Below the pieces are notes generated by a model. It was not told where the DNA came from. It made no database searches and worked only from the letters and a program-made list of their open reading frames with translations. Made by a program: the position numbers and the translations under genes. Of a DNA stretch of 32,000 nt, positions 1,615 to 16,248 are shown piece by piece. Source of the DNA: Candidatus Heimdallarchaeota archaeon (GTDB taxonomy: Archaea; Asgardarchaeota; Heimdallarchaeia; Heimdallarchaeales; Heimdallarchaeaceae); assembly GCA_030668875.1 (NCBI GenBank), contig DAOVER010000014.1, positions 1-32,000 of the forward strand, written 5' to 3'. Position 1 is the first letter of the stretch. The number at the start of each line of letters is the position of its first letter.

Positions 1615-3216
1615 TCACATTTTTGCTTTTAGTGCATCTTTCTGTTGTAAGTTCATATAGTTTAATAGAGTATTTTCCAATCTAGAGAACCCATAATTTC
1701 TACACTTCTTTATCGCCATATACTGTAAAGCTGGCCCAAGGGGGTCTCCATTCTTATATGCCCCTACCTGAATGAAAGCTTCCATGAAGATACGCATTTC
1801 CAGAACTTCTATTCTATGGAGTCTGTTATTGTATTTCTTTAACAGAGGAGAAATTTTAGTATAGTGCTTGAGTGAAAACAATTGTTGGGCAATAAGGAGA
1901 TCTGCATAAGCATGTTCTATGAATGTAGTTTTACTTGTTGTTATGCGCTTTTCTAAAGTAGCAATACAACTCAGTGCTATCTGTTCCTGATTAATCCATG
2001 TTAACTTTCGTTTTCCAAGCATAAACTCTATTAGATGCTTAACACGATTAATGCTGAAATTATTGATTTCTAATAACTTTTGAAGTTTATCAGAATCGAG
2101 GTCAGAATTAAGGATGAATTCACTCAAAGACATGAAATCACTGTATTGACTTTTACAATTCTCAAAAATCTCATCGATCAGCTCTTGATGCTCCTGAGGA
2201 TCATAATTTCCTAAACGTGAAATATTGTAGAAATTTACAAGATTGAGATTATGAATAATTTGTTTCTCTGTATTCTTATCTAAATGTTTTTTCATAAAAT
2301 CTGATTGGAGAAGAATGTATGCTTCTTTAATTAAAACACAAGCCTGTTCTGTTTTGCCCTGCAATCCTTTAACAATCGCAAAATAAGAGTGAAGAACAAG
2401 AAAATTGCTGAAGTAGATACTGTTATTGTAAATTGGTTTAAGGATATTATAAGCCTCATTGAAATAAGATTCAGCCATTATTAAATTAGCGTTTAGAATA
2501 TAAATCCAACCTGTGAAATAGTAAATTATACCTCTTATATCAAGTGGTAAGTTTTCAAAGAGATATCTATTAGCGAGAATTTGATTGCTCAGGTTTAATG
2601 CTTTCATGTTTTCATGCATTCTGGAATAGATTATCCCTAAAAGTCCAATAGTTTGAGCTAAACTCCTATAGAACCCTCCCTTGAAGAAATAATGCGCACA
2701 ATCTTCTAGAATTTTTACACTTTCAGAATCATGTTCTTCTAACCATTTTTCAATTGCATATGAATAATGTACAAAATGAACAATATACGGGTCTTCTTTT
2801 TTTGACTTATCAATAAGTAAGAAGGCCTTTTCTATGAAAGATTTTCCTTTAACTTTATTTACCTTTATCTTTTCTATAAACCACCAGTATGAATAAGTTA
2901 ATGCTAATCCTTCTTGATTGGAATTTTCTTTAGAAAGATTTTCCATATCATTTGCTATTTTGATGATTTTTTCCAAATTCTCTCTACGATTTTCCAGTAA
3001 CAATATTTTGAGTCCGTACAGATTTACAATTGATTTATAATCATAGAAATTCTTGGCTTTTTCTATTGTTTTCTCAATTAGTTGGATTAAATTTACATTT
3101 GATTTATTATTTAATGTAAAAACCCGAAGTTGTTCTACAATTTGTTTAAATCTATCCAACGTCATATTTTCTTGGATTTGTTGTTCAAAATAATCCTCAT
3201 TCACTCTATAACTCAT
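1615..3216 (-). CDS. TPR-like alpha-helical repeat protein B (533 aa), paralog of 4066-5652
   Basis: Long ORF with TPR-like helix pairs (SLAQTIGLLGIIYSRMHENMKALNLSNQIL; AESYFNEAYNIL). No catalytic or HTH motif recognised. Clear homology to the neighbouring 528 aa ORF. Confidence 0.75.
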   Translation of the reverse strand: MSYRVNEDYFEQQIQENMTLDRFKQIVEQLRVFTLNNKSNVNLIQLIEKTIEKAKNFYDYKSIVNLYGLKILLLENRRENLEKIIKIANDMENLSKENSNQEGLALTYSYWWFIEKIKVNKVKGKSFIEKAFLLIDKSKKEDPYIVHFVHYSYAIEKWLEEHDSESVKILEDCAHYFFKGGFYRSLAQTIGLLGIIYSRMHENMKALNLSNQILANRYLFENLPLDIRGIIYYFTGWIYILNANLIMAESYFNEAYNILKPIYNNSIYFSNFLVLHSYFAIVKGLQGKTEQACVLIKEAYILLQSDFMKKHLDKNTEKQIIHNLNLVNFYNISRLGNYDPQEHQELIDEIFENCKSQYSDFMSLSEFILNSDLDSDKLQKLLEINNFSINRVKHLIEFMLGKRKLTWINQEQIALSCIATLEKRITTSKTTFIEHAYADLLIAQQLFSLKHYTKISPLLKKYNNRLHRIEVLEMRIFMEAFIQVGAYKNGDPLGPALQYMAIKKCRNYGFSRLENTLLNYMNLQQKDALKAKM

Positions 3217-3231
3217 TACTTTCGAACTATT

Positions 3232-3253
3232 ATCCGCAAATTGATTTATAAAG
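3232..3253 (-). promoter_or_regulatory. Putative TATA-containing promoter element of TPR protein B
   Basis: Minus-strand CTTTATAAATCAATTTGCGGAT, with the TATA box about 29 nt upstream of the ATG. 20/22 identical to the element upstream of the paralog (5673-5694). Confidence 0.6.
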
Positions 3254-3332
3254 GTGGATAATTATCCTCAACGAATAGTTGTGAAAAAATGAAATAAATA
3301 AAGAAACATTTGAAAAATGAAGAAATTTGAAA

Positions 3333-3394
3333 TGGAGACCATAATAATGGTAATTATATTCATTTCCATCTTCTAGATTGTATGCTTTTTTCAA
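3333..3394 (-). pseudogene. Decayed sixth copy of the microprotein (psi-pep6)
   Basis: Reads (TTG)KKAYNLEDGNE-[5 nt instead of 6]-LPLLWSP. This is the same register as KYDPEDGDE-xx-LPPLWRP with a 1-nt deletion, no ATG and no upstream conserved block. Confidence 0.65.
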
Positions 3395-3409
3395 TAAGTC
3401 TCTCTTTTC

Positions 3410-3478
3410 TTACGGATGCCACAAAGGAGGGGTTATTGCATCGTCTCCATCTTCCGGATCATATTTGTTTTTCATCAT
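3410..3478 (-). CDS. Microprotein pep5, 22 aa: MMKNKYDPEDGDDAITPPLWHP
   Basis: Translated by hand. ATG-ATG start, SD-like GAGTGA upstream, TAA stop; member of the five-copy family. Confidence 0.85.
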   Translation of the reverse strand: MMKNKYDPEDGDDAITPPLWHP

Positions 3479-3603
3479 TTTTTCATCACTCTTTTATGTT
3501 ATACTTAGAAGAGACAAAAGATACTAAAAGACAACAAGAAAGAAACTGACAATAAAACAGTTTTACTAGTAGCTATATACAACAAAACAAGAGTTTGAAA
3601 AAG
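3479..3603 (-). repeat. Conserved non-coding upstream block of pep5 (copy 1 of 4)
   Basis: Shares CATCACTC, ATACTT, AAAAGACA, AAACTGACAA (3543-3552) and ACTAGT (3565-3570) on the + strand with the other three copies. Confidence 0.85.
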
Positions 3604-3620
3604 AAAAATGGGAAATGAGA

Positions 3621-3692
3621 TTAATTAGGTGTCCACGCAGGGGGTAAAATGTCTTCGTCTCCTTCACCAGGATCATATTTTTGTTTCATCAT
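3621..3692 (-). CDS. Microprotein pep4, 23 aa: MMKQKYDPGEGDEDILPPAWTPN
   Basis: Translated by hand. Differs from pep1 by 8 synonymous and 1 non-synonymous substitution; SD-like GAGTGA upstream. Confidence 0.88.
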   Translation of the reverse strand: MMKQKYDPGEGDEDILPPAWTPN

Positions 3693-3803
3693 TGTTCATC
3701 ACTCGTTAAGTCATACTTAGAAATGTAAAAACCTACAAAAAGACAACAAGAAAAAAACTGACAATCAACAGTTCTTACTAGTCATATTATCAACAAAATA
3801 AGC
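3693..3803 (-). repeat. Conserved non-coding upstream block of pep4 (copy 2 of 4)
   Basis: AAACTGACAA at 3755-3764 and ACTAGT at 3777-3782, with the same motif order as the other copies. Confidence 0.85.
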
Positions 3804-3819
3804 CTTTTATAAAAAATCT

Positions 3820-3885
3820 CTATGGTCTCCATAAGGGTGGTAATATGCTTTCGTCTCCATCTTCAGGGTCGTATTTTGTCGTCAT
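3820..3885 (-). CDS. Microprotein pep3, 21 aa: MTTKYDPEDGDESILPPLWRP
   Basis: Translated by hand. ATG start behind GAGTGA, TAG stop; family motif intact. Confidence 0.85.
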   Translation of the reverse strand: MTTKYDPEDGDESILPPLWRP

Positions 3886-3997
3886 TTTTGCATCACTCGA
3901 TTTAGTTATACTTGAAATAGCAAAACCATACTAAAAGACATCAAGAAAGAAACTGACAATAAGGTTGTTTTACTAGTAAACATATCAATAAAACAGG
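3886..3997 (-). repeat. Conserved non-coding upstream block of pep3 (copy 3 of 4)
   Basis: AAACTGACAA at 3950-3959; ACTAGT at 3972-3977 within the palindrome TTTACTAGTAAA. Confidence 0.85.
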
Positions 3998-4065
3998 CAT
4001 TTTCAATAAGCAGGAGAAATTTAGTAACAAATAATAAACTTCCCAAAGAACCCTCAATTTATTCT

Positions 4066-5652
4066 CTAGATTTTTCTTGTTATTTCCTTCCGTTGCAATT
4101 GTAAGTAATCTAGTAATTTATTTTCCAATCGGGAGAAACCATAATCTCTACATTTTTTTATTGCCATATACTGTAAAGCTGGTCCTAGTGGATCTCCGTT
4201 CTTATATGCGCCTACTTGGATAAAAGCTTCCATGAAAATCCGCATCTCTAGAACCTCAATTCGCTTGAGTCTACTCTCATATTGTTTAAGAAGAGGAGAA
4301 ATTTCCGCGTACCGCTTAAGAGAGAACAGTTGCTGAGCAATAAGGAGATTCGCATTGGCATGTTCTATGAATGTAGTCTTGCTTGTTATTACGCGCTTTT
4401 CTAAAATAGTAATACAGTTCAGAGATTTCTGCTCCTGACTAATTTCCGCTTCTAACTTTTGCTTTTCTAGCATGAATTCAATTAGATGTTTTACTCGATT
4501 AATGCTGAAATTATCTATAGTTAATAACTGTTGAAGTTTATCAAAATCAAAATTGGAGTTAAGGATGAACTCGCTGAAGGTCATAAAATCACTATAATGA
4601 ACCTTACAACCTTCATAGATTTCCTCCATTAATTCCTGATTTTCTTGAGGATTATAGTTGCTTAAACGTGATATATTATAGAATTTTGTTAAATTGTAAG
4701 TATGAGTAATTTGCTTTTTTGTGTTTTCATCCAAGTTTTCCTTGATAAATTCTGTTTGGAGAAGTTTCCCCGCTTCTTTGCACATATCTGCAGCTTGCTT
4801 GGTTTTTCCTTGTAAACCTTTAACAGTAGCAAGATAAGAGTGTAAGACAAGAAAATTGCTGAAGTAAATACTGCTTTTGTAAATCGGTTTTAGGATATTG
4901 TAAGCTTCATTGAAATACGATTCAGCCATTACTAAATCAGCAACTAACATATGACCTAAACCTGTAAAATAATACATTATCCCTTTAACATCAAGAGGTA
5001 AATTCTCAAAGAGAGCTCTGTTAGCAAGAATTTTATTACCCATATCTAATGCTCTCTTACCTTGCTGTCTTCTTGAGTAGATGACACTTAGAAAACTGAA
5101 AGTTTGAGCTAGGCTTCTATAAAACCCCTCTTTATAAAAAAATTTACTACAGTCTTCAAAATCATTTGCTGTTTCAAAATTATGATTCAATACCCAATCT
5201 TCAAAGGCAAGTGAATATTTACAAATATAATAAACATAATTATCCTTTTGTTCATTTTTTGATAAAAGTAATTTTACTTTTCTTAGAGAATTAGTACTTT
5301 CTTTAATTCTCCCTTCTAACTTTAGAATACCCCATTCAATTGAATATGCCAATATTAAACCATCAATATAATTGATTTCTTTTGATATTCTAAACATTTC
5401 AGACAGAAGAAAATTAATTCTCTTTATTGAGCTTCTTTTATGAAATAATTGCTTTATTTCAAGCTCATACAGATTAACAATGGATTTTTTATGATTTAAC
5501 TTTTTACTCCATTTAATTGCTCTTCTTATTATTTCTAAAACAATTTCGGATTTTTCGTTTGCTGAAACTAAACGTAAATTCTTAATTATTCCTGGCAGTT
5601 CTTCATGATTTCTAATATTTTTAATCTGTTTTATTAATCTCTCCTTCTGCAT
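4066..5652 (-). CDS. TPR-like alpha-helical repeat protein A (528 aa), paralog of 1615-3216
   Basis: Long ORF sharing GFYRSLAQT, LFENLPLD, MAESYFNEAYNILKPIY and MRIFMEAFIQVGAYKNGDPLGPALQYMAIKKCR with the paralog; TPR-like helix pattern. Confidence 0.75.
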   Translation of the reverse strand: MQKERLIKQIKNIRNHEELPGIIKNLRLVSANEKSEIVLEIIRRAIKWSKKLNHKKSIVNLYELEIKQLFHKRSSIKRINFLLSEMFRISKEINYIDGLILAYSIEWGILKLEGRIKESTNSLRKVKLLLSKNEQKDNYVYYICKYSLAFEDWVLNHNFETANDFEDCSKFFYKEGFYRSLAQTFSFLSVIYSRRQQGKRALDMGNKILANRALFENLPLDVKGIMYYFTGLGHMLVADLVMAESYFNEAYNILKPIYKSSIYFSNFLVLHSYLATVKGLQGKTKQAADMCKEAGKLLQTEFIKENLDENTKKQITHTYNLTKFYNISRLSNYNPQENQELMEEIYEGCKVHYSDFMTFSEFILNSNFDFDKLQQLLTIDNFSINRVKHLIEFMLEKQKLEAEISQEQKSLNCITILEKRVITSKTTFIEHANANLLIAQQLFSLKRYAEISPLLKQYESRLKRIEVLEMRIFMEAFIQVGAYKNGDPLGPALQYMAIKKCRDYGFSRLENKLLDYLQLQRKEITRKI

Positions 5653-5672
5653 TCACACCTACTCGGAATCTA

Positions 5673-5694
5673 ATCCGTAAATTGATATATAAAG
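5673..5694 (-). promoter_or_regulatory. Putative TATA-containing promoter element of TPR protein A
   Basis: Minus-strand CTTTATATATCAATTTACGGAT, with the TATA box about 33 nt upstream of the ATG; near-identical to 3232-3253. Confidence 0.6.
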
Positions 5695-5720
5695 AAGAAG
5701 AAAAACAAAATAAAAAGTGG

Positions 5721-5792
5721 TTAATTGGGAAACCACAATGGAGGAGTAAAGGATTCGTCACCGTCTTCAGGATCATATCTTTGTTTCATCAT
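5721..5792 (-). CDS. Microprotein pep2, 23 aa: MMKQRYDPEDGDESFTPPLWFPN
   Basis: Translated by hand. GAGTGA upstream, TAA stop; family motif intact. Confidence 0.85.
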   Translation of the reverse strand: MMKQRYDPEDGDESFTPPLWFPN

Positions 5793-5916
5793 TTTTGCAT
5801 CACTCAATTTAGTCATACTTAGAAGAGCAAAAACATACTAAAAGACAACAAGAAAGAAACTGACAAAGAAATAGTTTTGCTAGTAGAAATATCAACAAAA
5901 TAAGAGTTTGAAAAAG
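5793..5916 (-). repeat. Conserved non-coding upstream block of pep2 (copy 4 of 4)
   Basis: AAACTGACAA at 5857-5866 and GCTAGT at 5879-5884. Closest to the pep5 block (shared AAGAGTTTGAAAAAG). Confidence 0.85.
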
Positions 5917-5934
5917 ATAAAAGGAAAAAGGACA

Positions 5935-6006
5935 TTAGTTAGGTGTCCACGCTGGTGGCAAAATATCCTCATCTCCTTCTCCAGAATCATATTTTTGTTT
6001 CATCAT
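5935..6006 (-). CDS. Microprotein pep1, 23 aa: MMKQKYDSGEGDEDILPPAWTPN
   Basis: Translated by hand. Near-identical protein to pep4 with mostly third-position changes. First gene of the locus; it has a different, AT-rich upstream region. Confidence 0.88.
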   Translation of the reverse strand: MMKQKYDSGEGDEDILPPAWTPN

Positions 6007-6195
6007 TGTTCATCACTTGTTTATGTTATTATAAAAATAAATTTTAACTTTTAAAACCCATAAAAAAAGAAATGCCAGTTTCTAACCTATGTCTTCCATT
6101 TTTCATAGAAGTAACAATTTTGCTGTGCTTTTATAGTTCGAAGTAGTACAACTTTTGAATAAATTCAGTCTTCTATCCCCCTAAGAGGAGAGTTC

Positions 6196-9036
6196 ATGAA
6201 CAAAAAGAATAATCTCCATTACGAAAAAAAATACAATTATAAATCAAAAAAACACTCTAACAGAGTACTGAAGAGTTTACTTTCCTTCATTTCTGTTGTA
6301 ACCGTAGGTATTTTTTCTCTATTTTTCCTCTTCCCTGAGATTACAGTATTAGTTCCTTCGACCTTTATTCAATCATTTTCTCATTTCTGTGAGAGTGTAG
6401 GAGCTGCCATAGTTGTATTCTTTACATCCGTATTAACAAACACATATTTTCTCATTTCACTTTTCTGTGTATTATTTTGTTTAACAATCATCATCTTTCT
6501 CCCGTATAAATCAGTTGAAAATAAGAAACAATATACGTTGAAAAAATTAGGTTTACCTTTCTATCGGACGGTAAACATGATGGTAGTTTATTCCTCTTCT
6601 CACAATAATTCCAAGAATTTCAGATTCAATGCATATGCAAATAAGACTCATTCTGCTTTTCTAAGTAGTTTATTAATGAAGTTCAATCTTCTTTCTTTGG
6701 TCTTTTACAAAAACGATGAAAACCTTAACATGCTCTTTCCTATTGTTTCAAAAGGCCTTAGTTTAAAAAACATTCAAAGTAAAATAAGAAGACAAATTGA
6801 TTTTATTTCTAATTCCATTGATACTCATTATGGTAGCAAAATAAAAGAGTTATCAGTTGAACAAGTCAATAAACTTCTAACTTCTTTAGAAAAAATGGAA
6901 TCAAGAACAAAAGTGGATCTTGCTTCTGATCTAATTAATAACTTCAATCTTACAGACCAATTATACAATACTCTCCTGAGGAATGGTACAGGTTCTACAT
7001 GCCTATTGATAAAAGCAGAGAAAAAATCCAATTATGAGTGTCATTTGGCTTCAGATTTGAGCATATTTTCTGAGAACAAACAAATAGAATCTCAGGTTTT
7101 GAACTCATGTGGATTAAAAAAGAAGAAAGCATTGAATTTGTTTCGTAGGAGATTGAAATTCACCCATTTATTATTCTCTTCTCTTTGGAAAAGAAACCTT
7201 TCAAATATTGAGAAGTTATCAACATTATTTCATATTCCTTTCAATTATCAAGGGGGACCAATTTCAATAAAATCTTCTCCCACATCTGCAAATCTCTCTC
7301 CCGAACTTAAGGATCAGAATTTAATGGTAGTGGGTCAAACTGTGGAGGGTGATGAAATAGGACAAGATATCACTATAAACGTTAAAGACCTTCTTCTAAA
7401 TTTAGAAATATTTGGGATGATTGGAAGGGGGAAGACAAAATTGGTCTCTTCATTATTAAAACAGGTTCTAGATTATAATATTAGTGCTCTTGTTTTTGAT
7501 ATTAAAGGAGAATATTCGCGGGCTTTTATAGACGATTCTCGCGTGGAAATTTTTACAATAGGAAAACCTAGGCCATTATGTCTGAATTTATTTGAAACAA
7601 TCGATAGTGAAGATGTACATAATACATTGTTAATAATTGAAGAGATGATGATGTCATCAAATTTAGAATTTACTCCATCAATGAAAAACTTGTTCGAAAC
7701 TGCCTTATTTCAAACACATCGTTCTTCAAAAAGGAATCTACAAACCTTTGTTGAAAATGTGTATAAAGTAGCAGAGGATATTAGATCTAACTCCAATAAC
7801 TCTTATATTCAGCAAACTATTGACGCTGTTTTAAATAGACTAAATTTCATCTTCAATCCGATTAATTATGAGATATTAGGTGCGATACGAACAACTCTGG
7901 ATTTATCTCTTCTGGATAATAACAAAAGCATAATCTTAGATTTGAGCCAGTTTCAAAAACGAGCGGCTAGACCTTCAGACATTTTTTTAATTTGTAATCT
8001 TATTTTGAAAAAACTTTATCGCCACGCTTCTGCAAAAGAAATTACAAACAAACTAAGATATGTTGTTGTTTTAGAAGAAGCTATTAATATTATACCTAAT
8101 TTTTATCGTCCGGAGAGTTCTGCCTCCCTAATTACATCAGAGAACAATTTCTTGTTGGGACGAAGTTTGGGTATCGGACATATAACCGTCTCACAGTTGT
8201 GGTCCAGTGTCAGCAATATTGTTCACGGCAATTCCGCTACAAAAATTATCTTCCGCTCAAGTGAAAAAGCAGATATTATAGGTAAATCTATCAATTTATC
8301 TGAAGATGAGATAAGCAAAGTTCAAAGATTGCCGACCCAGCATTGCTTTATTTTCTTTGAAGGATCAGAAAAGCCTCTTAAGATTAGAACAATTGACTTA
8401 CTAAGTGAACCTATTAGCTTTGCTGAATACCGCTCTAAAATTATAAAACGATATGGACGAAATGTTCTTCCCTTACTTTACAATAATTTTATAGAAATGA
8501 GAACCTCACTTTACCAGAAATACACTCTGAGCACTAAGAAGAAATTTGGCTCAACCAACCAAGGACGTAATCCAAGTAGTGTTCAACCAAGATTAGAGAA
8601 TGTTTCATTCCAAGCAAAGACTGAGGACATAGAGAGAAAGAATATTGATGATTCTATAGCTGAAAAAGAAACAATGGATTTTGTAAATTCAGCTGAGTTC
8701 TTACCTGAAAACTTGTTATGTGAACAATTATGTCCAGAGAAAAATCACTGGAGAGATTGTATTAAGTATAATATTGGAGCAAAAATAATCAAGACCATTA
8801 TTACTAAAAACAGTTCTTCAAAAGAGTTAGCTTTCCTGTTAGATAATCCTACTCAATTGCTATCTATAGTCAAAGATTATGCAGAAAAAAGAAATCTAGA
8901 ATATGATCCGTTTTTAGCATTTTGCACTGTAAAGAGTCTTACTTTGGATTTAGTTTCAGGTGGGATACTAACCTTTCAAGAAGCCTATACTTTTCTTAAG
9001 AAATTTTCTCCCCAAACACAGACAACCTTAACCTGA
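6196..9036 (+). CDS. HerA/VirB4/TrwB-like P-loop ATPase (DUF87-type) with N-terminal transmembrane helices
   Basis: Walker A GMIGRGKT, VFDIKGEY, Walker B VVLEEA, GRSLGIGHITVSQ and HGNSATKIIFR, all typical of the FtsK-HerA superfamily. Hydrophobic segments at about aa 28-105; SD GAGGAG. Confidence 0.8.
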   Translation: MNKKNNLHYEKKYNYKSKKHSNRVLKSLLSFISVVTVGIFSLFFLFPEITVLVPSTFIQSFSHFCESVGAAIVVFFTSVLTNTYFLISLFCVLFCLTIIIFLPYKSVENKKQYTLKKLGLPFYRTVNMMVVYSSSHNNSKNFRFNAYANKTHSAFLSSLLMKFNLLSLVFYKNDENLNMLFPIVSKGLSLKNIQSKIRRQIDFISNSIDTHYGSKIKELSVEQVNKLLTSLEKMESRTKVDLASDLINNFNLTDQLYNTLLRNGTGSTCLLIKAEKKSNYECHLASDLSIFSENKQIESQVLNSCGLKKKKALNLFRRRLKFTHLLFSSLWKRNLSNIEKLSTLFHIPFNYQGGPISIKSSPTSANLSPELKDQNLMVVGQTVEGDEIGQDITINVKDLLLNLEIFGMIGRGKTKLVSSLLKQVLDYNISALVFDIKGEYSRAFIDDSRVEIFTIGKPRPLCLNLFETIDSEDVHNTLLIIEEMMMSSNLEFTPSMKNLFETALFQTHRSSKRNLQTFVENVYKVAEDIRSNSNNSYIQQTIDAVLNRLNFIFNPINYEILGAIRTTLDLSLLDNNKSIILDLSQFQKRAARPSDIFLICNLILKKLYRHASAKEITNKLRYVVVLEEAINIIPNFYRPESSASLITSENNFLLGRSLGIGHITVSQLWSSVSNIVHGNSATKIIFRSSEKADIIGKSINLSEDEISKVQRLPTQHCFIFFEGSEKPLKIRTIDLLSEPISFAEYRSKIIKRYGRNVLPLLYNNFIEMRTSLYQKYTLSTKKKFGSTNQGRNPSSVQPRLENVSFQAKTEDIERKNIDDSIAEKETMDFVNSAEFLPENLLCEQLCPEKNHWRDCIKYNIGAKIIKTIITKNSSSKELAFLLDNPTQLLSIVKDYAEKRNLEYDPFLAFCTVKSLTLDLVSGGILTFQEAYTFLKKFSPQTQTTLT

Positions 9037-9796: not shown

Positions 9797-10810
9797 ATGA
9801 TGTCAACAGTAATTTCAGATAAGAAAAAGGAGATTGTTAATAATCTCAAAAAAGAATTGCTATCCTACCCTATTATTGGCTTAGTTAAAATTGACAATAT
9901 CAACGCAAAAGTTGTACAGAACATTCGTAAAGACCTCTATAAAGAAGCTAGGATTGTTATGGCTAAGAACAGTTTAATGAAACTAGCCTTAGCTGAAGTT
10001 AAGAAAGATATCAAAGGAATTGAAAAATTAACAGAACATATAGTTGGTTCCTGTGCTTTCTTATTAACTAATACTAATCCCTATAAACTAGCCTCTTACA
10101 TGGATGATAATAAAGTTCAAGCACCTGCAAAAGCAGGACAAGTAGCACCGAATGATGTTATAATTAGACCAATGAATACTGGTATTCCTCCGGGGCCTGT
10201 TATAGCTGAACTCCAATCTCTGGGTTTGAAAACTAGAATTGAAGGTGGTCAAATCAGAATCTCTGAAGAAGCTGTAGTGACCAAAGAAGGTGAGCGAGTT
10301 AATAGAACAGTTGCTCTCCTTCTAAGAAGACTAAACATTGAACCCTTTCAAGCAGGATTGAGTTTTGTTGTAGCTTTTGAGGACGGAGCTCTAATTGCAG
10401 GTAAAGAATTAATCATTGACTATAATATGTATGAACAGAATCTCAAATGGGCTTACTCTTCAGCGTTAAATCTTGCAATTAATGCTGGAATTATTACAAA
10501 ACAAAGCGTTGCACTAATTATGGGCAATGCTAATAGGTTTGCCCTTAATCTTTCTGTAAATGCAAGTATAATTAATAGAAAATCATTACCTCTTATTTTA
10601 TCAAAAGCTGTTCAAGAATCTTTGTCTGTTGCATCCAAAGTAGCAGAACAAGATTCAAATGCAATATCTGATAAAATACAAGAAAAACTAACCTCTGCAC
10701 CAAAAGCTCAGTCTGTTGAAACAGTTAAAACTGTATCAAAAGAAGAAGTTAAGGAGGAAGTTGAAGAAGAACCTGAGGAAGACTTAGGGTTAGGATCACT
10801 ATTTGGATAG
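9797..10810 (+). CDS. rplP0: Ribosomal protein uL10 (acidic stalk P0)
   Basis: IVMAKNSLM, APAKAGQVAPNDV, TGIPPGPVIAELQSLG and the acidic tail EEEPEEDLGLGSLFG. Confidence 0.96.
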   Translation: MMSTVISDKKKEIVNNLKKELLSYPIIGLVKIDNINAKVVQNIRKDLYKEARIVMAKNSLMKLALAEVKKDIKGIEKLTEHIVGSCAFLLTNTNPYKLASYMDDNKVQAPAKAGQVAPNDVIIRPMNTGIPPGPVIAELQSLGLKTRIEGGQIRISEEAVVTKEGERVNRTVALLLRRLNIEPFQAGLSFVVAFEDGALIAGKELIIDYNMYEQNLKWAYSSALNLAINAGIITKQSVALIMGNANRFALNLSVNASIINRKSLPLILSKAVQESLSVASKVAEQDSNAISDKIQEKLTSAPKAQSVETVKTVSKEEVKEEVEEEPEEDLGLGSLFG

Positions 10811-10819
10811 GTGAAAAAT

Positions 10820-11128
10820 ATGGAATATGTATATGCCGCACTAGTACTACATGAATTAGGAGAAAAAATAACACAAGCAAAAGTAAAAGGAATTCTTGAA
10901 GCTGCTGGCACAACAGCAGATGATTCTCGTATCAAAGCTTTAGTAGCTGCTTTGAAAGAAGTTGATATTGAAGAAGCATTGAAAACAGCTGTTATGTCCG
11001 CTACAGCCGCACCAGCCGCAGCTCCTAAAGGAGCAGCGAAGGAATCAGACGCACCAGCTAAAAAAGAGAAAGTTGAAGAAGAACCTGAAGAAGATACCGA
11101 CTTAGGTTTAAGCGCTCTATTCGGATAA
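10820..11128 (+). CDS. rpl12: Ribosomal stalk protein aL12/P1 (ATG 10820 behind SD AGGTGA; ORF track starts at GTG 10811)
   Basis: MEYVYAALVLH, Ala-rich hinge and acidic tail ending LSALFG. Confidence 0.96.
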   Translation: MEYVYAALVLHELGEKITQAKVKGILEAAGTTADDSRIKALVAALKEVDIEEALKTAVMSATAAPAAAPKGAAKESDAPAKKEKVEEEPEEDTDLGLSALFG

Positions 11129-11200: not shown

Positions 11201-11518
11201 CTAAGTTTTCTTTATAAAATCATTAAACGCTTCCACTATGTCATTATATTCTTCTAATATCTGATAATCCCCCAAAGATTCAATGTCCCTTTCTATAGTT
11301 AAATTAGAACTAAGAGATGCAATCCTTGATCTCCTTACTTGCCCTCTACCGTCGATTGATATGATTAATGTATGATCCTCTGCATGCATCAGAACGAAAT
11401 TAAATAGTTGACCATCTCTTAATTCCTCAAGTTGCTTTTTATCAATTCTACATTCCAGCATTCTACCGCATTTTTCACAGTTAAATGCCTTTATTATGAA
11501 TTGGTTCTCCATTTCCAT
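11201..11518 (-). CDS. Small hypothetical protein with CxxC...H...H putative metal-binding motif
   Basis: CEKCG, LMHAEDHTLIISIDGRGQVRR; last gene of the GTPase operon. Confidence 0.65.
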   Translation of the reverse strand: MEMENQFIIKAFNCEKCGRMLECRIDKKQLEELRDGQLFNFVLMHAEDHTLIISIDGRGQVRRSRIASLSSNLTIERDIESLGDYQILEEYNDIVEAFNDFIKKT

Positions 11519-11540: not shown

Positions 11541-12137
11541 CTAAACATTAGAATATTTTGAAAGTAGTTCTTTCGCTAAATTATCCTCTTTATTCACAAT
11601 TTGATTAACCATATATTCAAATGGCTCAGAAACGTTAGCTGAAAAGAGGCCACTAACTAAGAAATGTTTTCGTATGTCATGAGTTTTCATAAAATCATGA
11701 ATGTCTTCAACAGTTACTTCAACATTATCGAGGTCTAATTTATTTCCAACTAAAATTTCAGGAACTTTAGGATAATAATGGTTTTTAAGATAATTTCTGG
11801 TAAGTTCAACAAATTCACTGAGGTCGAGTAGAGTTTCAATGTCAGTTACATCATAAACATACATCACACCTTTGACTCCCCGTAGAAACACATCTATCAT
11901 AAATCTAAATTGCCTTTGACCAGCAAAGTCCCATATCTGCAGAGTTACCGCTTTATCAAATTGTGCTATTCTCTTTATAGTAATGTCGACTCCTTTAGTC
12001 ATCGAAATTTCATTAGGATCAGTCATTTCTCCTGTGTAGCCTTTGGATATTGTTGTTTTACCAACAGATCCTAAACCAAGCACTGCAACTTTTAAGATGT
12101 TTCCTTGGTTAGTGTTATGTGGTTGTCTTGCTATCAT
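11541..12137 (-). CDS. Rab-like (Ras superfamily) small GTPase
   Basis: G1 GLGSVGKTT, G2 TKGVDI, G3 WDFAGQ, G4 NKLD; no C-terminal prenylation cysteine. Confidence 0.92.
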   Translation of the reverse strand: MIARQPHNTNQGNILKVAVLGLGSVGKTTISKGYTGEMTDPNEISMTKGVDITIKRIAQFDKAVTLQIWDFAGQRQFRFMIDVFLRGVKGVMYVYDVTDIETLLDLSEFVELTRNYLKNHYYPKVPEILVGNKLDLDNVEVTVEDIHDFMKTHDIRKHFLVSGLFSANVSEPFEYMVNQIVNKEDNLAKELLSKYSNV

Positions 12138-12161
12138 TATATATCATATCCTAAAAAATAT

Positions 12162-13496
12162 TTAAAACACCACATTTTTTGTGGTATTTTCTCCCGCAAT
12201 CATTCCATGAAGAGAAACAGCTGCAAATACAGGTTTATTCCTAATTACAGAAAACTCTCCTCCTGAATAAAACGTTATGAAGGGAACATCATTACCAATT
12301 GCCTCTTTAATCATATTGGTTTCCTTTTCAATCTTATCTCCAGCAATTAACAGCCTATTACTACAGTTTATGAACACACCAAAACACGGATTCTCTATGT
12401 TTTGAGATGCTTTTATTGCACACTCAAATGCTGATTCTTGGATACCTGTTCCAGATTGTGTGAAGAAATCTGCACTAACATTGTCTTTTTTCAAGATTCT
12501 CTCTGGTATTGTAGTTACGACTCCATTCAGAATTGATTGGATTATTGAAACATAAGGTACATGCTCTCCTTCATCTGAACTGAGTGCTGATAAGTATAAC
12601 AAAGATGCATTAGCATATCGTGCAAATTCTTCATTATACATTTCCTCCGAAATCCCAATAAGATCAAGAAAGGCTTTACGTGCAGGTTTTTTGTTGATTT
12701 TTTGAACGTATCCACTTGTAAGATAATCTGAAACATTGAAATCATCTGATCTTTGTGATTTATCAAAGGTCCAATCCATATCAAACTCTAGCTTATCTGA
12801 TGAAAAGAACGTTCCAACCATTGCATCTTTTAGTACATTTATTCCTTCAAATTGAAAATTTGTCACCATATCAATATCAATGGTGGCACCCCCAATCATA
12901 TTGTAGATATTTTTCTTTGCGAGAATAGAGAGAATTTCATCAGCATAATTTGCTGTTCCATATCCGTTTTTCCCCATATTTTTGTTTATGAGTTTTCCAA
13001 TTGCATTGAACATTCCTTTGAACTTCTGTGCAAAGTATGTATCCAAAATCTTCATTTGTTCATATGCATCTGGTTCAAAAAAAGGACCAGCTGTTAGGAA
13101 AAATCCCATTTTGTTTTTTTGTTCTATTTTGTTATAACAATCAAGAATAATTTTAGCTCCTTTTTTTGGATTTGTTCTGATATTAGAATAAGAGTAGGGC
13201 TTATGAAATGTGATATCATCTGATTTAATTGCCATAACTGAGCATCCTTGAGTAGTTGGGTATCCGTCTGACGTTGCTACTCCTGGAAAAACACCTCCAA
13301 CTATGTTGGTTGTTCCACTTTCATCACTTAATTTTACAAGAGCTTCTTCGTAAGCTTGTTTACTTCGATAATTTGGTGTAAAACCTACCATTAGAAAATC
13401 AGAAGTACCGTTTATATCCCCAATTACATCTTTTACAATGTTTTTTGTTACTTGATGTATGGATCTATGACTTGCGGTTCCTGTTGCTATTTTCAT
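12162..13496 (-). CDS. FIST-domain signal transduction protein
   Basis: N-terminal IVGGVFPG and IGGATID; C-terminal GVFINCSNR and PFITFYSGGEF match the FIST_N/FIST_C pattern. Confidence 0.8.
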   Translation of the reverse strand: MKIATGTASHRSIHQVTKNIVKDVIGDINGTSDFLMVGFTPNYRSKQAYEEALVKLSDESGTTNIVGGVFPGVATSDGYPTTQGCSVMAIKSDDITFHKPYSYSNIRTNPKKGAKIILDCYNKIEQKNKMGFFLTAGPFFEPDAYEQMKILDTYFAQKFKGMFNAIGKLINKNMGKNGYGTANYADEILSILAKKNIYNMIGGATIDIDMVTNFQFEGINVLKDAMVGTFFSSDKLEFDMDWTFDKSQRSDDFNVSDYLTSGYVQKINKKPARKAFLDLIGISEEMYNEEFARYANASLLYLSALSSDEGEHVPYVSIIQSILNGVVTTIPERILKKDNVSADFFTQSGTGIQESAFECAIKASQNIENPCFGVFINCSNRLLIAGDKIEKETNMIKEAIGNDVPFITFYSGGEFSVIRNKPVFAAVSLHGMIAGENTTKNVVF

Positions 13497-13505
13497 GTAA
13501 ATTCC

Positions 13506-13865
13506 TCACAAACTCGCTGATATCAACATAGCTTTTCTTTTTGTTTCAATAGATAGAAGACTCATGTTTGCAGTTCTAATTGCTAAAGTAGTAAGAATTG
13601 TTACGTTATTGACAACTGAAAATATAACATTGAAGTTATTCAGCTCATAGGTAACCTTAGCTAAGTTATTTGTCTTCATCTCAAGCGATACTTTTTCCAC
13701 GTTTGCCTTGCACCATTGTATTGTTCTAAGAATCTCGTTGGAATGCTCTTCTTTAAACGCAGATTTGATAACGTTACCATCTATCCGAAAAAGTATTGCA
13801 GCCTCAACATCATCTAGATGTATTAAATCAGATAATTCTGAGGTTAATCCAGTGTTATAGTTCAT
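13506..13865 (-). CDS. Roadblock/LC7 (MglB-like) domain protein
   Basis: About 120 aa; VEAAILFRIDGNVI strand-turn motif and C-terminal amphipathic helix NMSLLSIETKR. Start overlaps the stop of the KaiC-like gene. Confidence 0.8.
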   Translation of the reverse strand: MNYNTGLTSELSDLIHLDDVEAAILFRIDGNVIKSAFKEEHSNEILRTIQWCKANVEKVSLEMKTNNLAKVTYELNNFNVIFSVVNNVTILTTLAIRTANMSLLSIETKRKAMLISASL

Positions 13866-14788
13866 TTTTTAACCTCTTGAAGCATTTGAGGACTGGTTAT
13901 TGCATCTACAAGATCTATTTTGTCTCCTTTTTCATGTCTATCATTGAGTAGATTTTTAGCTATCTGGGCAATTATTCTCTTTTTTGGATCCTTATCTTTC
14001 GACATTTGTTTGACCTTTTTCATTAATTCATTATACCTAGTATCATAAATTGAAGGCTCGTCGCATTCTGTCTGGATTGAACTTGTATCAATAGCTATAC
14101 CTGCACCATGAGCAAAATGCATTGGGAAAATGCCTTCATGATGAGCTGTTCTTCTAGATTTTACAATTTTACAAGTTCTGTTGTACTTACCACCTAATCC
14201 GAGATTTTGAATGTGGACTACTGTATCTGATAGATAGATCGGAACTCTTGTTTCTATGGCTCCAATGTCTGTTTGTCCAAACGCATTAGGTTCTTCAACA
14301 GTTTGTAGAACAGTACCTAATGAGCTTAGGTGCTGGTAAATTTTAGTTAATACTTTTCTTTGTTCCCTTTCAGATGGGAACTCCCATAGAATTGGTGTAA
14401 GAGGATCTAAAATGATTCTTGTATGTCTAACGTTTTTATGCTTAAGTTTTTGGGCTAAAGCCGGAAGTATATTAGTCATAAATTCAACAATTTTTTCGCT
14501 TTCCACAAGGTGTATGAGGTCTGTAAAATTCTGTGAAACGTCTTTAATTCTTATTCCCAAAGATTCTGCTCCTGCTATAAGTTTAGAAGGTGTCTCTTCA
14601 AATGACAAGTAAAGTGTATGGTCTCCTTCGAGTAACCCTTGGTAAATATAAGCTAGTGCGAAAGTTGTTTTTCCTGTACCGCTGCTTCCTACAATGGAAT
14701 TGATTGAATTTTTAATCATTCCACCTTGAAGCAATACATCCAAGCCTTCAATGCCTGAAGAAATTCTTTCAGTAATTGACATATTCAT
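13862..14788 (-). CDS. KaiC-like / RAD55-family ATPase (single domain)
   Basis: RISSGIEGLDVLLQGG, Walker A GSSGTGKT, YLSFEET, IILD and IVKSRRTAH. Confidence 0.88.
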   Translation of the reverse strand: MNMSITERISSGIEGLDVLLQGGMIKNSINSIVGSSGTGKTTFALAYIYQGLLEGDHTLYLSFEETPSKLIAGAESLGIRIKDVSQNFTDLIHLVESEKIVEFMTNILPALAQKLKHKNVRHTRIILDPLTPILWEFPSEREQRKVLTKIYQHLSSLGTVLQTVEEPNAFGQTDIGAIETRVPIYLSDTVVHIQNLGLGGKYNRTCKIVKSRRTAHHEGIFPMHFAHGAGIAIDTSSIQTECDEPSIYDTRYNELMKKVKQMSKDKDPKKRIIAQIAKNLLNDRHEKGDKIDLVDAITSPQMLQEVKK

Positions 14789-14904
14789 CTATATTTTTAC
14801 ATGAACAAGCTAAATAAACTCCACAATTTCTTTCTAAAATCAAATTTGACCTTTTATCTAGTTAATTGAATTAAACGCAATATTTTATAAAGAAATAGAA
14901 ATAG

Positions 14905-15678
14905 ATGTTCTCGAGTATCATGACATCTCTCTTAGCCAAAATTAAAGAGCTATTCATCTCCAAAGAGAAAAAATTTGTTATTGCCCTTCATGAGGAGCTA
15001 GAAAATAAGAACTTTGTTAATCTAAAAAAAATCTCTTCCAAATTATCATTACAACAAAGATACAAAGTTGTCAGTAAACTCCAATCATCCAAAGAGCTAC
15101 GTGGTGTATTGCTTAGTGAAAGAATGTTGTTTATGTCTATTGATGAGAACAAATTAGATGATTTGAAGGACAAAATAAAGAATATTGGAACAATTAAATT
15201 ACTTGAACTAAAAAATCGGTGGAAATTAAAAGATAACATTTTGGATAACCTCCTACAGCACATTGAGAAGGGCATAATGGGCGAAAAAGCCTTTTATACT
15301 CACAGATATCTTCAACATCATTTTATTACTAATCTCACAAAAAGTGATGAACACGATCTCGAGAAGATGAGCTCAAAACTTGGTTTAGAATCGTCTGTAA
15401 TACTTCCTTTTGTTCAAAAAATGATAACTGAAGGAACAGTTTCTGGTGTAATAAAGCAACAACAGTTTTTTGTAGATTCTGAATCCTTTGAAGCTTCATT
15501 TTCTGAGTATCTTGAGGAAATAAGTGAGGATACATTAGAAAAAGAGTTCAGTGAGGTGGCTCTAGAATTAGGGGTTTCATCTTCTGTAGTTGAAAAATAT
15601 TTAGTGAAACACGTTGAGAGATCACCTGGTCGCTTTGTTATATATCCTCTTGAGAAGAAAGTAAGAATAAAAAGATGA
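14905..15678 (+). CDS. Hypothetical protein with repeated winged-helix/PCI-like modules
   Basis: Repeated HTH-like segments (IKLLELKNRWKL; DLEKMSSKLGLESSVILPFVQKMITEGTVSG; FSEVALELGVSSSVVEKYL). Confidence 0.5.
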   Translation: MFSSIMTSLLAKIKELFISKEKKFVIALHEELENKNFVNLKKISSKLSLQQRYKVVSKLQSSKELRGVLLSERMLFMSIDENKLDDLKDKIKNIGTIKLLELKNRWKLKDNILDNLLQHIEKGIMGEKAFYTHRYLQHHFITNLTKSDEHDLEKMSSKLGLESSVILPFVQKMITEGTVSGVIKQQQFFVDSESFEASFSEYLEEISEDTLEKEFSEVALELGVSSSVVEKYLVKHVERSPGRFVIYPLEKKVRIKR

Positions 15679-15822
15679 AGCGTTATTAGTACTATCTTTT
15701 AGTCCTTTTTCATTCACATTAGAAATTATATGCTTACATGTCACTTTTTACAGCATATTTTATGAGTGTATTATCTGTCGAAATCTTTAAAATAGTATGT
15801 TGTTTTCGAACGATAGATAAAA

Positions 15823-16248
15823 ATGGCAAAGAAGCTACCATGGATTTTTCCCGGAATTAGACGACCAAATTTTAGTTTACATCAAATTTCAATTCGAATG
15901 CCAACACGAATCCCTCGTAGTGTTCTCTATATATTGATTTATGCAATTGTTTTCTATATTTTTGCTGGTGGTGCATATGATATTGTAAACAGTGAGAATC
16001 TTATTAGTATAGGCTCAGACGGAAACTCACCGATATTTATTGCCCCCAATCAACATGCACAGTATCTAATAGAGGGGATTGTAGCAGGATTCGTTTTCTC
16101 ATTTGCTGCAGCAAGTTTATACCTTTTTGAACATGCAACAAAATATGCTTTTGATGTTAATACAGCTCAAAAAGTTGAATTAATTGCAACAGTATTAGTA
16201 ATTGTATGGTTTGTTGTTATTCTTCTGCTATTTAATGCAAAAAGTTAG
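15823..16248 (+). CDS. OSTC/DC2 (OST3/OST6-related) oligosaccharyltransferase accessory subunit homologue
   Basis: 141 aa, three TM helices. IFAGGAYDIV and QYLIEGIVAGFVF resemble eukaryotic DC2 (ITGGIIYDVI; QYIMEGLASSFLF, recalled from memory). Confidence 0.8.
   Translation: MAKKLPWIFPGIRRPNFSLHQISIRMPTRIPRSVLYILIYAIVFYIFAGGAYDIVNSENLISIGSDGNSPIFIAPNQHAQYLIEGIVAGFVFSFAAASLYLFEHATKYAFDVNTAQKVELIATVLVIVWFVVILLLFNAKS

Follow-up and report, generated by a model that had tools for sequence, protein, structure and literature searches.

A stretch of 32,000 nucleotides (nt) was analysed, called the window below. It is the first 32 kb of contig DAOVER010000014.1 and belongs to a 3.2-Mb, 92%-complete metagenome-assembled genome of the Heimdallarchaeaceae from marine sediment. 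Directly after the 23S rRNA gene, the window carries an array of genes for peptides of 21–23 amino acids (aa), interleaved with two genes for large tetratricopeptide repeat (TPR) proteins. The peptides and the TPR proteins form a real, strongly selected and lineage-specific micropeptide–TPR system, and their predicted direct cognate binding is well supported in silico. An earlier reading of the sequence alone (the original prediction) had placed the DNA in an Asgard archaeon and had proposed a cognate peptide–TPR system. The host is indeed an Asgard archaeon, of the family Heimdallarchaeaceae, and the proposed system gained support from gene linkage, co-distribution, a complex prediction that exceeded its controls, and covariation. 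The system comprises about 100 unannotated micro-genes in about 25 Heimdallarchaeaceae species.

The peptide genes and their linkage to TPR genes

The genes of the array lie on the minus strand in the order pep1-pep2-TPR_A-pep3-pep4-pep5-decayed copy-TPR_B (Table 1). The open reading frames (ORFs) agree with the original prediction in this order, and their translations agree with it in the five intact peptides, which share the motif (K/R)YDxxxGD(E/D)xxxPP(L/A)WxP and fall into two subtypes. An ortholog of pep1 occupies the same position in another species (G014, locus L011). For pep2, an alternative 31-aa reading starts at position 5816, with an ATG that is not kept in the other copies. The decayed sixth copy, which had been suspected before, is real. 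Its DNA at 3360–3393 is 68–74% identical to the peptide cores (repeat family D6), it has a TTG start and a 1-nt gap relative to the other copies, its PP motif and in-register stop are gone, and it has no promoter block of its own. TPR_A and TPR_B are 58–59% identical. The locus arose through duplication of a [peptide(s)+TPR] unit, as had been suggested: the array repeats D2–D4 are spaced 2314–2451 nt, and the TPR tree, in which the closest relative of TPR_B is its ortholog in another species (G026), places the duplication before the species splits.

The 85 distinct peptides collected from related loci are 18–28 aa long, acidic and free of hydrophobic stretches, and so are the five peptides of the window. 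Their consensus is M..[YFH]DPxxGD[DE]x[ILV]xPPxWxP, followed by 0–1 residue and the stop, and the shortest ones begin straight at M-[YF]-D-P. The PP pair, the Trp and a Pro at or beside the C-terminus are invariant. The peptides showed no signal sequence, consistent with the earlier reading, nor any recognisable signal for export or cleavage. The peptides are under clear purifying selection. A recount of the differences between pep1 and pep4 gave the same 8 synonymous changes and 1 non-synonymous change (S8P) as reported before. Across 89 peptide genes, all synonymous codons are in use for the conserved core G, D and P residues, so selection acts on the peptide rather than on the DNA or RNA. 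The array is not due to chance. The motif as a DNA pattern gave 11 matches in this genome versus 0 for the reversed pattern, and a protein-level six-frame scan of the genome gave 9 matches, all of them short ORFs beside TPR paralogs; four of these lie outside the window array, each again next to a TPR paralog. Two other ideas about the peptides were dropped. The idea that the peptide mimics a motif carried by some large protein of this genome was given up because the six-frame scan returned only short ORFs, and an EF-hand-like calcium loop in DPEDGDE was given up because its spacing is unsuitable by our own reading.

Peptides and TPR proteins have matching phyletic distributions. Across the class (82 genomes), the close TPR family is confined to one family, where it was found in 22 of 23 genomes of genus g1 and in both genomes of genus g2; a distant TPR-family match is present in genus g3. 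The peptides were searched phylum-wide in 399 genomes with a degenerate DNA pattern for G-D-x-x-x-x-P-P-x-W. The pattern was found in 21 of the 23 g1 genomes and in both g2 genomes, with 1–17 copies each. Elsewhere in the phylum there were about 0–1 matches per genome, and the reversed pattern gave about 0. The linkage is equally close in the fetched loci. For every one of the 49 full-length core-family TPR ORFs, a peptide ORF was found on the same strand no more than 700 nt upstream; 31 of them have a single such ORF, 11 have two and 7 have three. Conversely, of 107 peptide ORFs, 106 are at most 1.2 kb away from a TPR ORF, and one is an orphan with no TPR gene nearby. The peptide types cluster on the TPR tree, requiring 23 changes versus 36 when shuffled, which shows, at the least, that peptide and TPR are duplicated together as one unit.

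This genome has about ten more TPR-family members, several of them broken, and there are up to about 12 copies per genome. The paralogs at C9:47853-49411, C95:77520-79061 and C95:96921-98491 are interrupted by stop codons or frameshifts (C9, C19, C20 and C95 denote contigs of this genome, G numbers denote genomes and L numbers denote fetched loci). The peptide genes beside the broken paralogs C9:47853 and C95:77520 are still intact. Species differ in whether a given site holds a module, and the modules are surrounded by housekeeping genes (rRNA, L1/L10, PEPCK, pyrophosphatase) rather than set in recognisable mobile elements.

Several rearranged or divergent forms of the module were also seen. 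A distant subfamily of TPR proteins, which are about 560 aa long and share about 20% identity with TPR_A, has peptide variants of its own (...DEDTLPPHWFP, ...DDDIIPPAW.P and ...DDYIIPPAWTP), often with one of them convergent at the 3' end of the gene. Convergent peptide copies at the TPR 3' end occur at C95:82954 of this genome and in L040, L045 and L050. Some TPR genes are flanked by inverted peptide genes, with arms of 51–114 nt that are 100% identical in G023. Relative to the flanking FtsX gene, the TPR segment between such arms is flipped in G014 compared with this genome, and the inverted peptide repeats point to recombination or inversion across them. In a tighter type of duplication, peptide copies lie about 80 nt apart without a promoter block of their own, and the upstream copy is usually decayed, having lost its stop and reading into the next copy.

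Ahead of every internal peptide gene lies a conserved block of about 120 nt, shared by the two genera. It consists, in order, of TGTCA, a pyrimidine run (TTTCTTTCTTG), a TATA-like TTTTA(G/A)TA(T/G), a TAAC about 24 nt further on, and a GAGTGAT that resembles a Shine-Dalgarno (SD) sequence and lies 5–9 nt ahead of the peptide ATG. The TGTCA/pyrimidine element was found 70–76 nt ahead of the ATG in 71 of 90 peptide genes, followed by the TATA-like box and the SD. RNAalifold predicted no pairs in the block, and because no RNA structure was found it is read as a promoter common to the peptide genes, together with a control element upstream. After the stop, at least 5 T in a row occur within 60 nt in 78 of the 90 peptide genes versus 22% of random windows. 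This fits the oligo-T at which archaeal transcription is known to terminate. The TPR genes have a canonical box of their own, CTTTATA(T/A)ATCAATTT, which is conserved across species. Since the peptide genes carry their own promoter and terminator signals and the TPR genes their own TATA box, peptide and TPR genes are separate transcription units as judged from these sequence signals.

TPR fold, predicted binding and covariation

The TPR protein belongs to no described family in the databases searched. Pfam gave only a sub-threshold TPR_12 match, NCBIfam and PADLOC gave nothing, and a profile search against Protein Data Bank (PDB) sequences returned only designed repeats and IFIT with E > 1e-3. 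Its neighbours in the ESM Atlas are generic TPR families. An AlphaFold2 (AF2) model of TPR_A, built from a 27-sequence alignment, is an all-helical solenoid of 29 helices with a predicted local distance difference test score (pLDDT) of 90 and a predicted TM-score (pTM) of 0.87, and TPR-like helical hairpins span residues 2 to 527. Every significant fold match is a TPR solenoid, and the model has the superhelix of stacked repeats of about 34 residues by which TPR proteins are recognised. Among the matches are proteins that clasp peptides or other proteins, namely TSK with H3, APPBP2 with its degron, MAU2/Scc4, the MalT sensor and APC subunits. NprR was also among the whole-protein Foldseek matches, at rank 18 with an E value of 9e-4, behind generic TPR solenoids. 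No helix-turn-helix (HTH) domain was found by Pfam or in the model, or among the fold matches, again as originally read, and no enzymatic domain was found in the protein. The protein is net basic, with 80 K+R versus 62 D+E.

Conservation divides the protein into two parts. Residues 1–425 are variable (entropy 1.5–2.3), and residues 426–515 are near-invariant (entropy 0.66–1.0), though the paralogs are only 40% identical overall. The near-invariant region lies outside the predicted peptide interface. Folded alone, this C-terminal module gives a five-helix TPR-like cap with a pLDDT of 92. It has no significant match in the PDB and contains no HTH or other known output fold. Its best matches, which are not significant, are the C-terminal parts of RopB/Rgg, PrgX and Rap (E 0.1–2, TM 0.6–0.73).

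Binding in the TPR groove, a central point of the original prediction, was also predicted by a complex model of TPR_A and pep2. TPR_A was modelled with the 31-codon reading of pep2 in three runs, with a separate, unpaired alignment for each partner. The complex score was 0.66 (0.81, 0.02 and 0.66 in the three runs) versus 0.01 for the best control. In the calibration of the tool, 58 of 80 solved complexes and 2 of 110 mismatched pairs attained this mark; these counts are only roughly valid here because own alignments were used. The contact agreement of the runs was at least 17% and the peptide pLDDT at least 30. Only the conserved peptide residues 13–31 (pep2 Y..N) are docked, and the peptide is predicted to run extended and antiparallel on the concave face, from TPR_A residue 27 to 425. 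The predicted contacts are more conserved than the remaining solenoid (mean entropy 1.28 versus 1.77 bits, Mann–Whitney p = 5e-5), and they include the invariant Y146, C168 and Q314 together with several basic residues.

Covariation between peptide and receptor was measured as normalised mutual information in 49 pairs of a TPR protein and its proximal peptide, over 391 variable TPR columns. The residue after the Trp had its top covariation with columns 104, 67, 108 and 70 (ranks 1, 3, 4 and 5 of 391). All four are predicted contacts of this residue, and among 20000 random column sets there was none with ranks as good. For the residue between PP and W the strongest covariation was with column 183, and for the residue before PP with column 266, in both cases at rank 1; both columns are predicted contacts of the residue concerned. 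The signals are position-specific, with only the direct partners of the three peptide positions standing out, and the pairings are physically sensible: Phe goes with Gly108, Ser with His108 and Gln104, and Thr with Asn266. In this locus, the Phe after the Trp of pep2 is matched by G108 and K67 in TPR_A, a pairing also seen in other species. Since the predictor saw unpaired alignments, the covariation test is independent of it. Because all columns share one phylogeny, relatedness alone does not account for the top ranks of the contact partners. In independent contrasts on the tree, the direction was always the same or tied, and never the opposite.

Proposed mechanism and alternative explanations

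The explanation we favour is a cognate micropeptide–TPR pair with a peptide-controlled C-terminal output, and taken as a whole it is held to be reasonably probable. A module would consist of one to three separately transcribed micro-genes, each for an acidic peptide of 18–25 residues, and the gene of a TPR solenoid of about 530 aa with a promoter of its own. The peptide, which has no signal sequence, would fill the concave channel of the solenoid (TPR_A residues ~27–425) in an extended, antiparallel form. Its invariant PPxWxP end would be seated in the N-terminal repeats (Y146, S147, C168), and the acidic DPEDGDE stretch would lie along later repeats with basic side chains (R179, R194, K425). 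This binding mode is a prediction of the complex model. The three variable peptide positions (before PP, between PP and W, and after W) would set the specificity among paralogs and co-evolve with their TPR contact residues. Occupancy of the channel probably alters the shape or assembly of the solenoid, and would thereby control the near-invariant 90-residue C-terminal module (residues 426–515) as a common output, through oligomerisation or binding of a conserved cellular partner. We infer that the peptide acts in the cytoplasm and that the output passes through the C-terminal module. As the promoters of all peptide genes follow one design, the input under regulation is probably the dosage of the peptide. 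The logic would be like that of Rap-Phr or NprR.

Several observations weigh against this explanation. One of the three complex runs failed, with a score of 0.02, and the confidence of the docked peptide is modest (pLDDT 30–66). The groove-facing TPR residues may be conserved for structural reasons. Averaged over the 38 variable contact columns, covariation is not above background, and none of the independent-contrast tests, with 4–5 pairs each, reached p < 0.05. By the covariation rule, pep1 and pep4, which have A between PP and W, fit a TPR protein with Met-183. TPR_A has Gln at this position and no TPR copy with Met-183 was found in this genome, so not every peptide has an obvious cognate here. 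Upstream of the distant paralogs on contigs C19 and C20, no peptide gene was found. An effector domain is not recognisable in the TPR protein, and the proposed output is therefore a guess. No RNA data set is listed for this DNA, the runs listed being DNA from marine sediment and cold seep.

Firmicutes and their phages are known to have free, gene-encoded peptides that act as ligands of dedicated TPR receptors. Compared with these RRNPP systems (Rap-Phr, NprR-NprX, PlcR-PapR, PrgX, Rgg-SHP, AimR-AimP), the Heimdallarchaeaceae system likewise has a peptide gene adjoining the gene of a TPR protein, a groove that is predicted to bind the peptide, many diversified paralogous pairs per genome, and a peptide–receptor specificity that co-evolves. 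Like Rap, its receptor lacks an HTH. However, the host is archaeal, and RRNPP systems belong to Firmicutes and their mobile elements. Searches of Pfam, NCBIfam and PDB sequences gave no homology to Rap, NprR, PlcR, PrgX, Rgg or AimR beyond generic TPR. The receptor of about 530 aa is TPR throughout and has neither an HTH nor a three-helix N-terminal domain, and the peptides are strongly acidic and have no signal sequence or pro-region. The gene order also differs, with one to three copies of the peptide gene upstream that carry individual promoter and terminator signals, and the peptide core is near-invariant across paralogs instead of fully diversified. The comparison with RRNPP made in the original prediction therefore stands as an analogy and not as membership, for which homology, HTH and signal peptide are all absent: by analogy, the logic is RRNPP-like.

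The other likeness is to eukaryote-type TPR solenoids, which were the top structural matches. In MAU2/Scc4 with the Scc2 N-terminus, LGN/Pins with Inscuteable, KLC with W-acidic motifs, APPBP2 with a C-degron and TSK with the H3 tail, a long TPR superhelix surrounds an extended peptide of about 20 residues, as is predicted here, and its concave face reads aromatic and acidic motifs. The likeness is one of fold class only (TM 0.4–0.6, about 11% identity), and the ligand here is a free micro-protein, not a segment of a large protein, with a gene of its own that moves and co-evolves with the gene of the receptor.

Genes for two kinds of membrane protein near the modules bear on the alternatives. 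Two single-copy genes, for a LolD/MacB-like ABC ATPase of 282 aa and for an FtsX-type permease of 603 aa, lie directly between or beside modules in both genera, and in G022 a peptide gene stands directly ahead of the ABC ATPase gene. More distant orthologs of this pair are present in genera without peptides. The ortholog of the HerA/FtsK-like ATPase that is divergent from pep1 in the window has a TPR-family gene within about 1 kb in 12 of 27 genomes, often one of the distant 560-aa subfamily. In the complete genomes G006 and G007 the two transporters are about 30 kb apart. Both also occur in genera g4 and g5, which are without peptides and without the TPR family. The adjacency could be synteny inherited in a region of module multiplication, which would be an adequate explanation. 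Any functional link of the HerA/FtsK-like ATPase to the modules would be putative.

The peptides might instead be secreted for cell–cell signalling as an analogue of RRNPP quorum sensing, with export by a non-Sec route, re-uptake and sensing by the TPR protein in the cytoplasm; the MacB/FtsX-type ABC transporter or the membrane HerA/FtsK-like ATPase would be the export candidates. This is unlikely, though the predicted binding and co-evolving specificity fit it as well as they fit the favoured micropeptide–TPR pair. The many paralogs per genome with diversified peptide–receptor pairs also recall Rap-Phr, and the ABC pair directly beside modules in both genera and the HerA/FtsK-like ATPase beside TPR-family genes in the 12 genomes speak for it. 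However, these short, strongly acidic peptides lack a hydrophobic segment and any recognisable signal for export or cleavage, and they are conserved and docked from Y/F-D-P to the C-terminus, which leaves no room for a pro-region. The presence of both transporters in the peptide-free g4 and g5 and the possible inherited synteny count against it too, and no importer was identified. A conflict or addiction module, of the toxin–antitoxin or defence kind, is less likely still. Here the TPR protein would be harmful or immune-sensing, and a presumably unstable acidic peptide would neutralise it by filling the groove. As in type II toxin–antitoxin systems, a small acidic gene lies upstream of a larger gene for a net basic partner, and the modules are multi-copy (up to ~12 per genome), patchy and often pseudogenised. 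They differ in presence or absence at the same site between species, show inversions between peptide repeats and are restricted to a narrow lineage. Unlike such systems, the genes have separate promoters with T-runs between them and do not form an autoregulated bicistronic operon. The TPR protein also has no known toxin fold and no toxin or catalytic domain, with no PADLOC or NCBIfam match, and the loci lie among housekeeping genes rather than in recognisable mobile elements.

It is quite improbable that the two proteins are a substrate–chaperone pair, in which the TPR protein delivers its peptide cargo to a membrane translocase in the way of type III class II chaperones or EccC of type VII secretion. 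By analogy, a TPR groove in those systems binds a short, extended, proline-containing motif, which resembles the extended peptide predicted here, and an FtsK/HerA-family membrane ATPase lies in the neighbourhood, as the HerA/FtsK/TrwB-like ATPase does as a divergent neighbour here and in several other genomes. Its orthologs (38–41% identity) are nevertheless found in peptide-free genera and so without modules, and many modules lie far from the ATPase. The 530-aa solenoid, three times larger than those TPR proteins, would with its conserved C-terminal module be large for a 20-residue cargo, and neither a secretion apparatus nor any further component of one was seen. A leader peptide is very improbable. 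In that case an upstream ORF would control the downstream TPR gene through ribosome arrest at PPxWxP-stop in the manner of TnaC, and the peptide itself would have no function. The position upstream of TPR on the same strand, a length that suits the ribosomal exit tunnel, and the invariant Pro-Pro, Trp and (near-)C-terminal Pro, which recalls Trp...Pro-stop of TnaC, would agree with arrest. It is opposed by the peptides' own promoter blocks, the T-runs after 78 of 90 peptide genes and the TPR TATA box behind the T-runs (all of these being signals in the DNA only), by the one to three tandem copies per TPR, the convergent copies and the orphan, and by the covariation of variable residues with the TPR surface, which tunnel arrest does not predict. 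Least probable of all are precursors of ribosomally synthesised and post-translationally modified peptides (RiPPs), with the TPR protein as the recognition or scaffold element of a modifying enzyme encoded elsewhere. Small, conserved, multi-copy genes beside a predicted peptide-binding protein, and an ABC exporter near one locus, would suit RiPPs. No radical SAM enzyme, YcaO, lanthionine synthetase, prenyltransferase or protease was seen in the window or in the related loci examined, however, the whole peptide is conserved without a split into leader and core, and the Cys, Ser or Thr pattern typical of RiPP cores is missing.

A search of the literature on small and TPR proteins of Heimdallarchaeia, RRNPP in archaea and Asgard microproteins gave no description of the system and no report of an RRNPP system in an archaeon, and no archaeal report was found of a free peptide ligand with a dedicated TPR receptor. 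The system is a concrete, testable case of micro-proteins that standard gene callers overlook in Asgard genomes. It also supplies a natural set of peptide–TPR specificity pairs, whose covarying positions form a small "code" that is usable for binder design. It possibly opens a view on how Asgard archaea regulate themselves or communicate by recognising extended peptides in TPR grooves, a principle widely used by eukaryotes. If the peptides are exported, this would be a new kind of archaeal cell–cell signalling. It is doubtful, at the same low probability as secretion itself, that the system is the first peptide-based signalling of Archaea, with leaderless acidic micropeptides, non-Sec export, co-evolving cytoplasmic TPR receptors and a conserved output module. 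If that were true, the archaeal lineage that is nearest to eukaryotes would have kin- or strain-specific cell–cell communication, with an origin independent of the bacterial RRNPP systems.

Feature coordinates and neighbouring genes

The features of the array, its neighbours and the related loci are collected in Table 1.

Table 1. Features of the array, of the rest of the window and of related loci. Plain coordinates are window positions.
Feature	Position	Strand	Description
TPR_B	1615-3216	-	533-aa all-helical TPR solenoid, paralog of TPR_A; ORF; weak TPR_12 match only in Pfam
TATA box of TPR_B	3245-3252	-	TTTATAAA; own promoter; same box before TPR genes of other species
Decayed sixth peptide copy	3360-3394	-	repeat family D6 and alignment
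pep5	3410-3478	-	22-aa peptide of the ...TPPLWHP type; copy closest to TPR_B; ORF and motif scan
Promoter block of pep5	3479-3598	-	TGTCA and pyrimidine run, TATA-like TTTTAGTAT, TAAC, SD-like GAGTGAT; repeats D1, D7
pep4	3621-3692	-	23-aa peptide of the ...LPPAWTPN type; ORF
Promoter block of pep4	3693-3812	-	conserved block
pep3	3820-3885	-	21-aa peptide of the ...LPPLWRP type; ORF and motif scan
Promoter block of pep3	3886-4005	-	conserved block
TPR_A	4066-5652	-	528-aa TPR solenoid; ORF, AF2 model, fold matches, complex prediction, regional conservation
TATA box of TPR_A	5686-5693	-	TTTATATA; after the T-runs behind pep2; followed by SD AGGTG; conserved in other species
pep2	5721-5792	-	23-aa peptide of the ...TPPLWFPN type; copy closest to TPR_A; ORF and motif scan
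Promoter block of pep2	5793-5912	-	conserved block
pep1	5935-6006	-	23-aa peptide of the ...LPPAWTPN type; first gene of the array; ORF
Upstream region of pep1	6007-6100	-	unlike the internal blocks: A/T-rich, TATA-like TTTATTTTTATAATA, then SD-like AAGTGATG
HerA/FtsK-like ATPase	6196-9036	+	membrane-anchored, 946 aa, DUF87, TrwB-like; Pfam; divergent from pep1
Ras/Arf-like small GTPase	11541-12137		
FIST-domain protein	12162-13496		
KaiC/RecA-like ATPase	13862-14788		
Protein with UFM1-E3-ligase/DDRGK-like and PCI matches	14905-15678		
OST3/OST6-like protein	15823-16248		
Tight peptide duplications	L039:1421-1599, 7856-8000, 12086-12239 (G014); window 3360-3478		
Inverted peptide arms	L059:8951-9025 and 10768-10842 (own contig C95); L045:9375-9488 and 11305-11418; also L040, L050		
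Distant ~560-aa TPR subfamily	L045:9396-11397, L050:1865-3852, L043:9960-11755, L051:204-2030, L049:1840-4046		
ABC ATPase and FtsX pair	own contig C95:84971-87650 (L059:10971-13650); also G014, G021, G022, G017, G011, G003, G029		

An Rfam scan of the window found the 23S rRNA and one tRNA, and nothing else. The 23S rRNA part at 1–1452 is the archaeal 3' part of the gene, and the contig begins inside it. Its 1452 nt cover 1025 model positions (1963–2987), which leaves about 430 extra nt as an expansion segment or intron. The HerA/FtsK-like ATPase gave weak PADLOC and NCBIfam matches (CedD, HerA). Further along the window, positions 11541–16248 hold a cluster of eukaryote-like or signalling genes.

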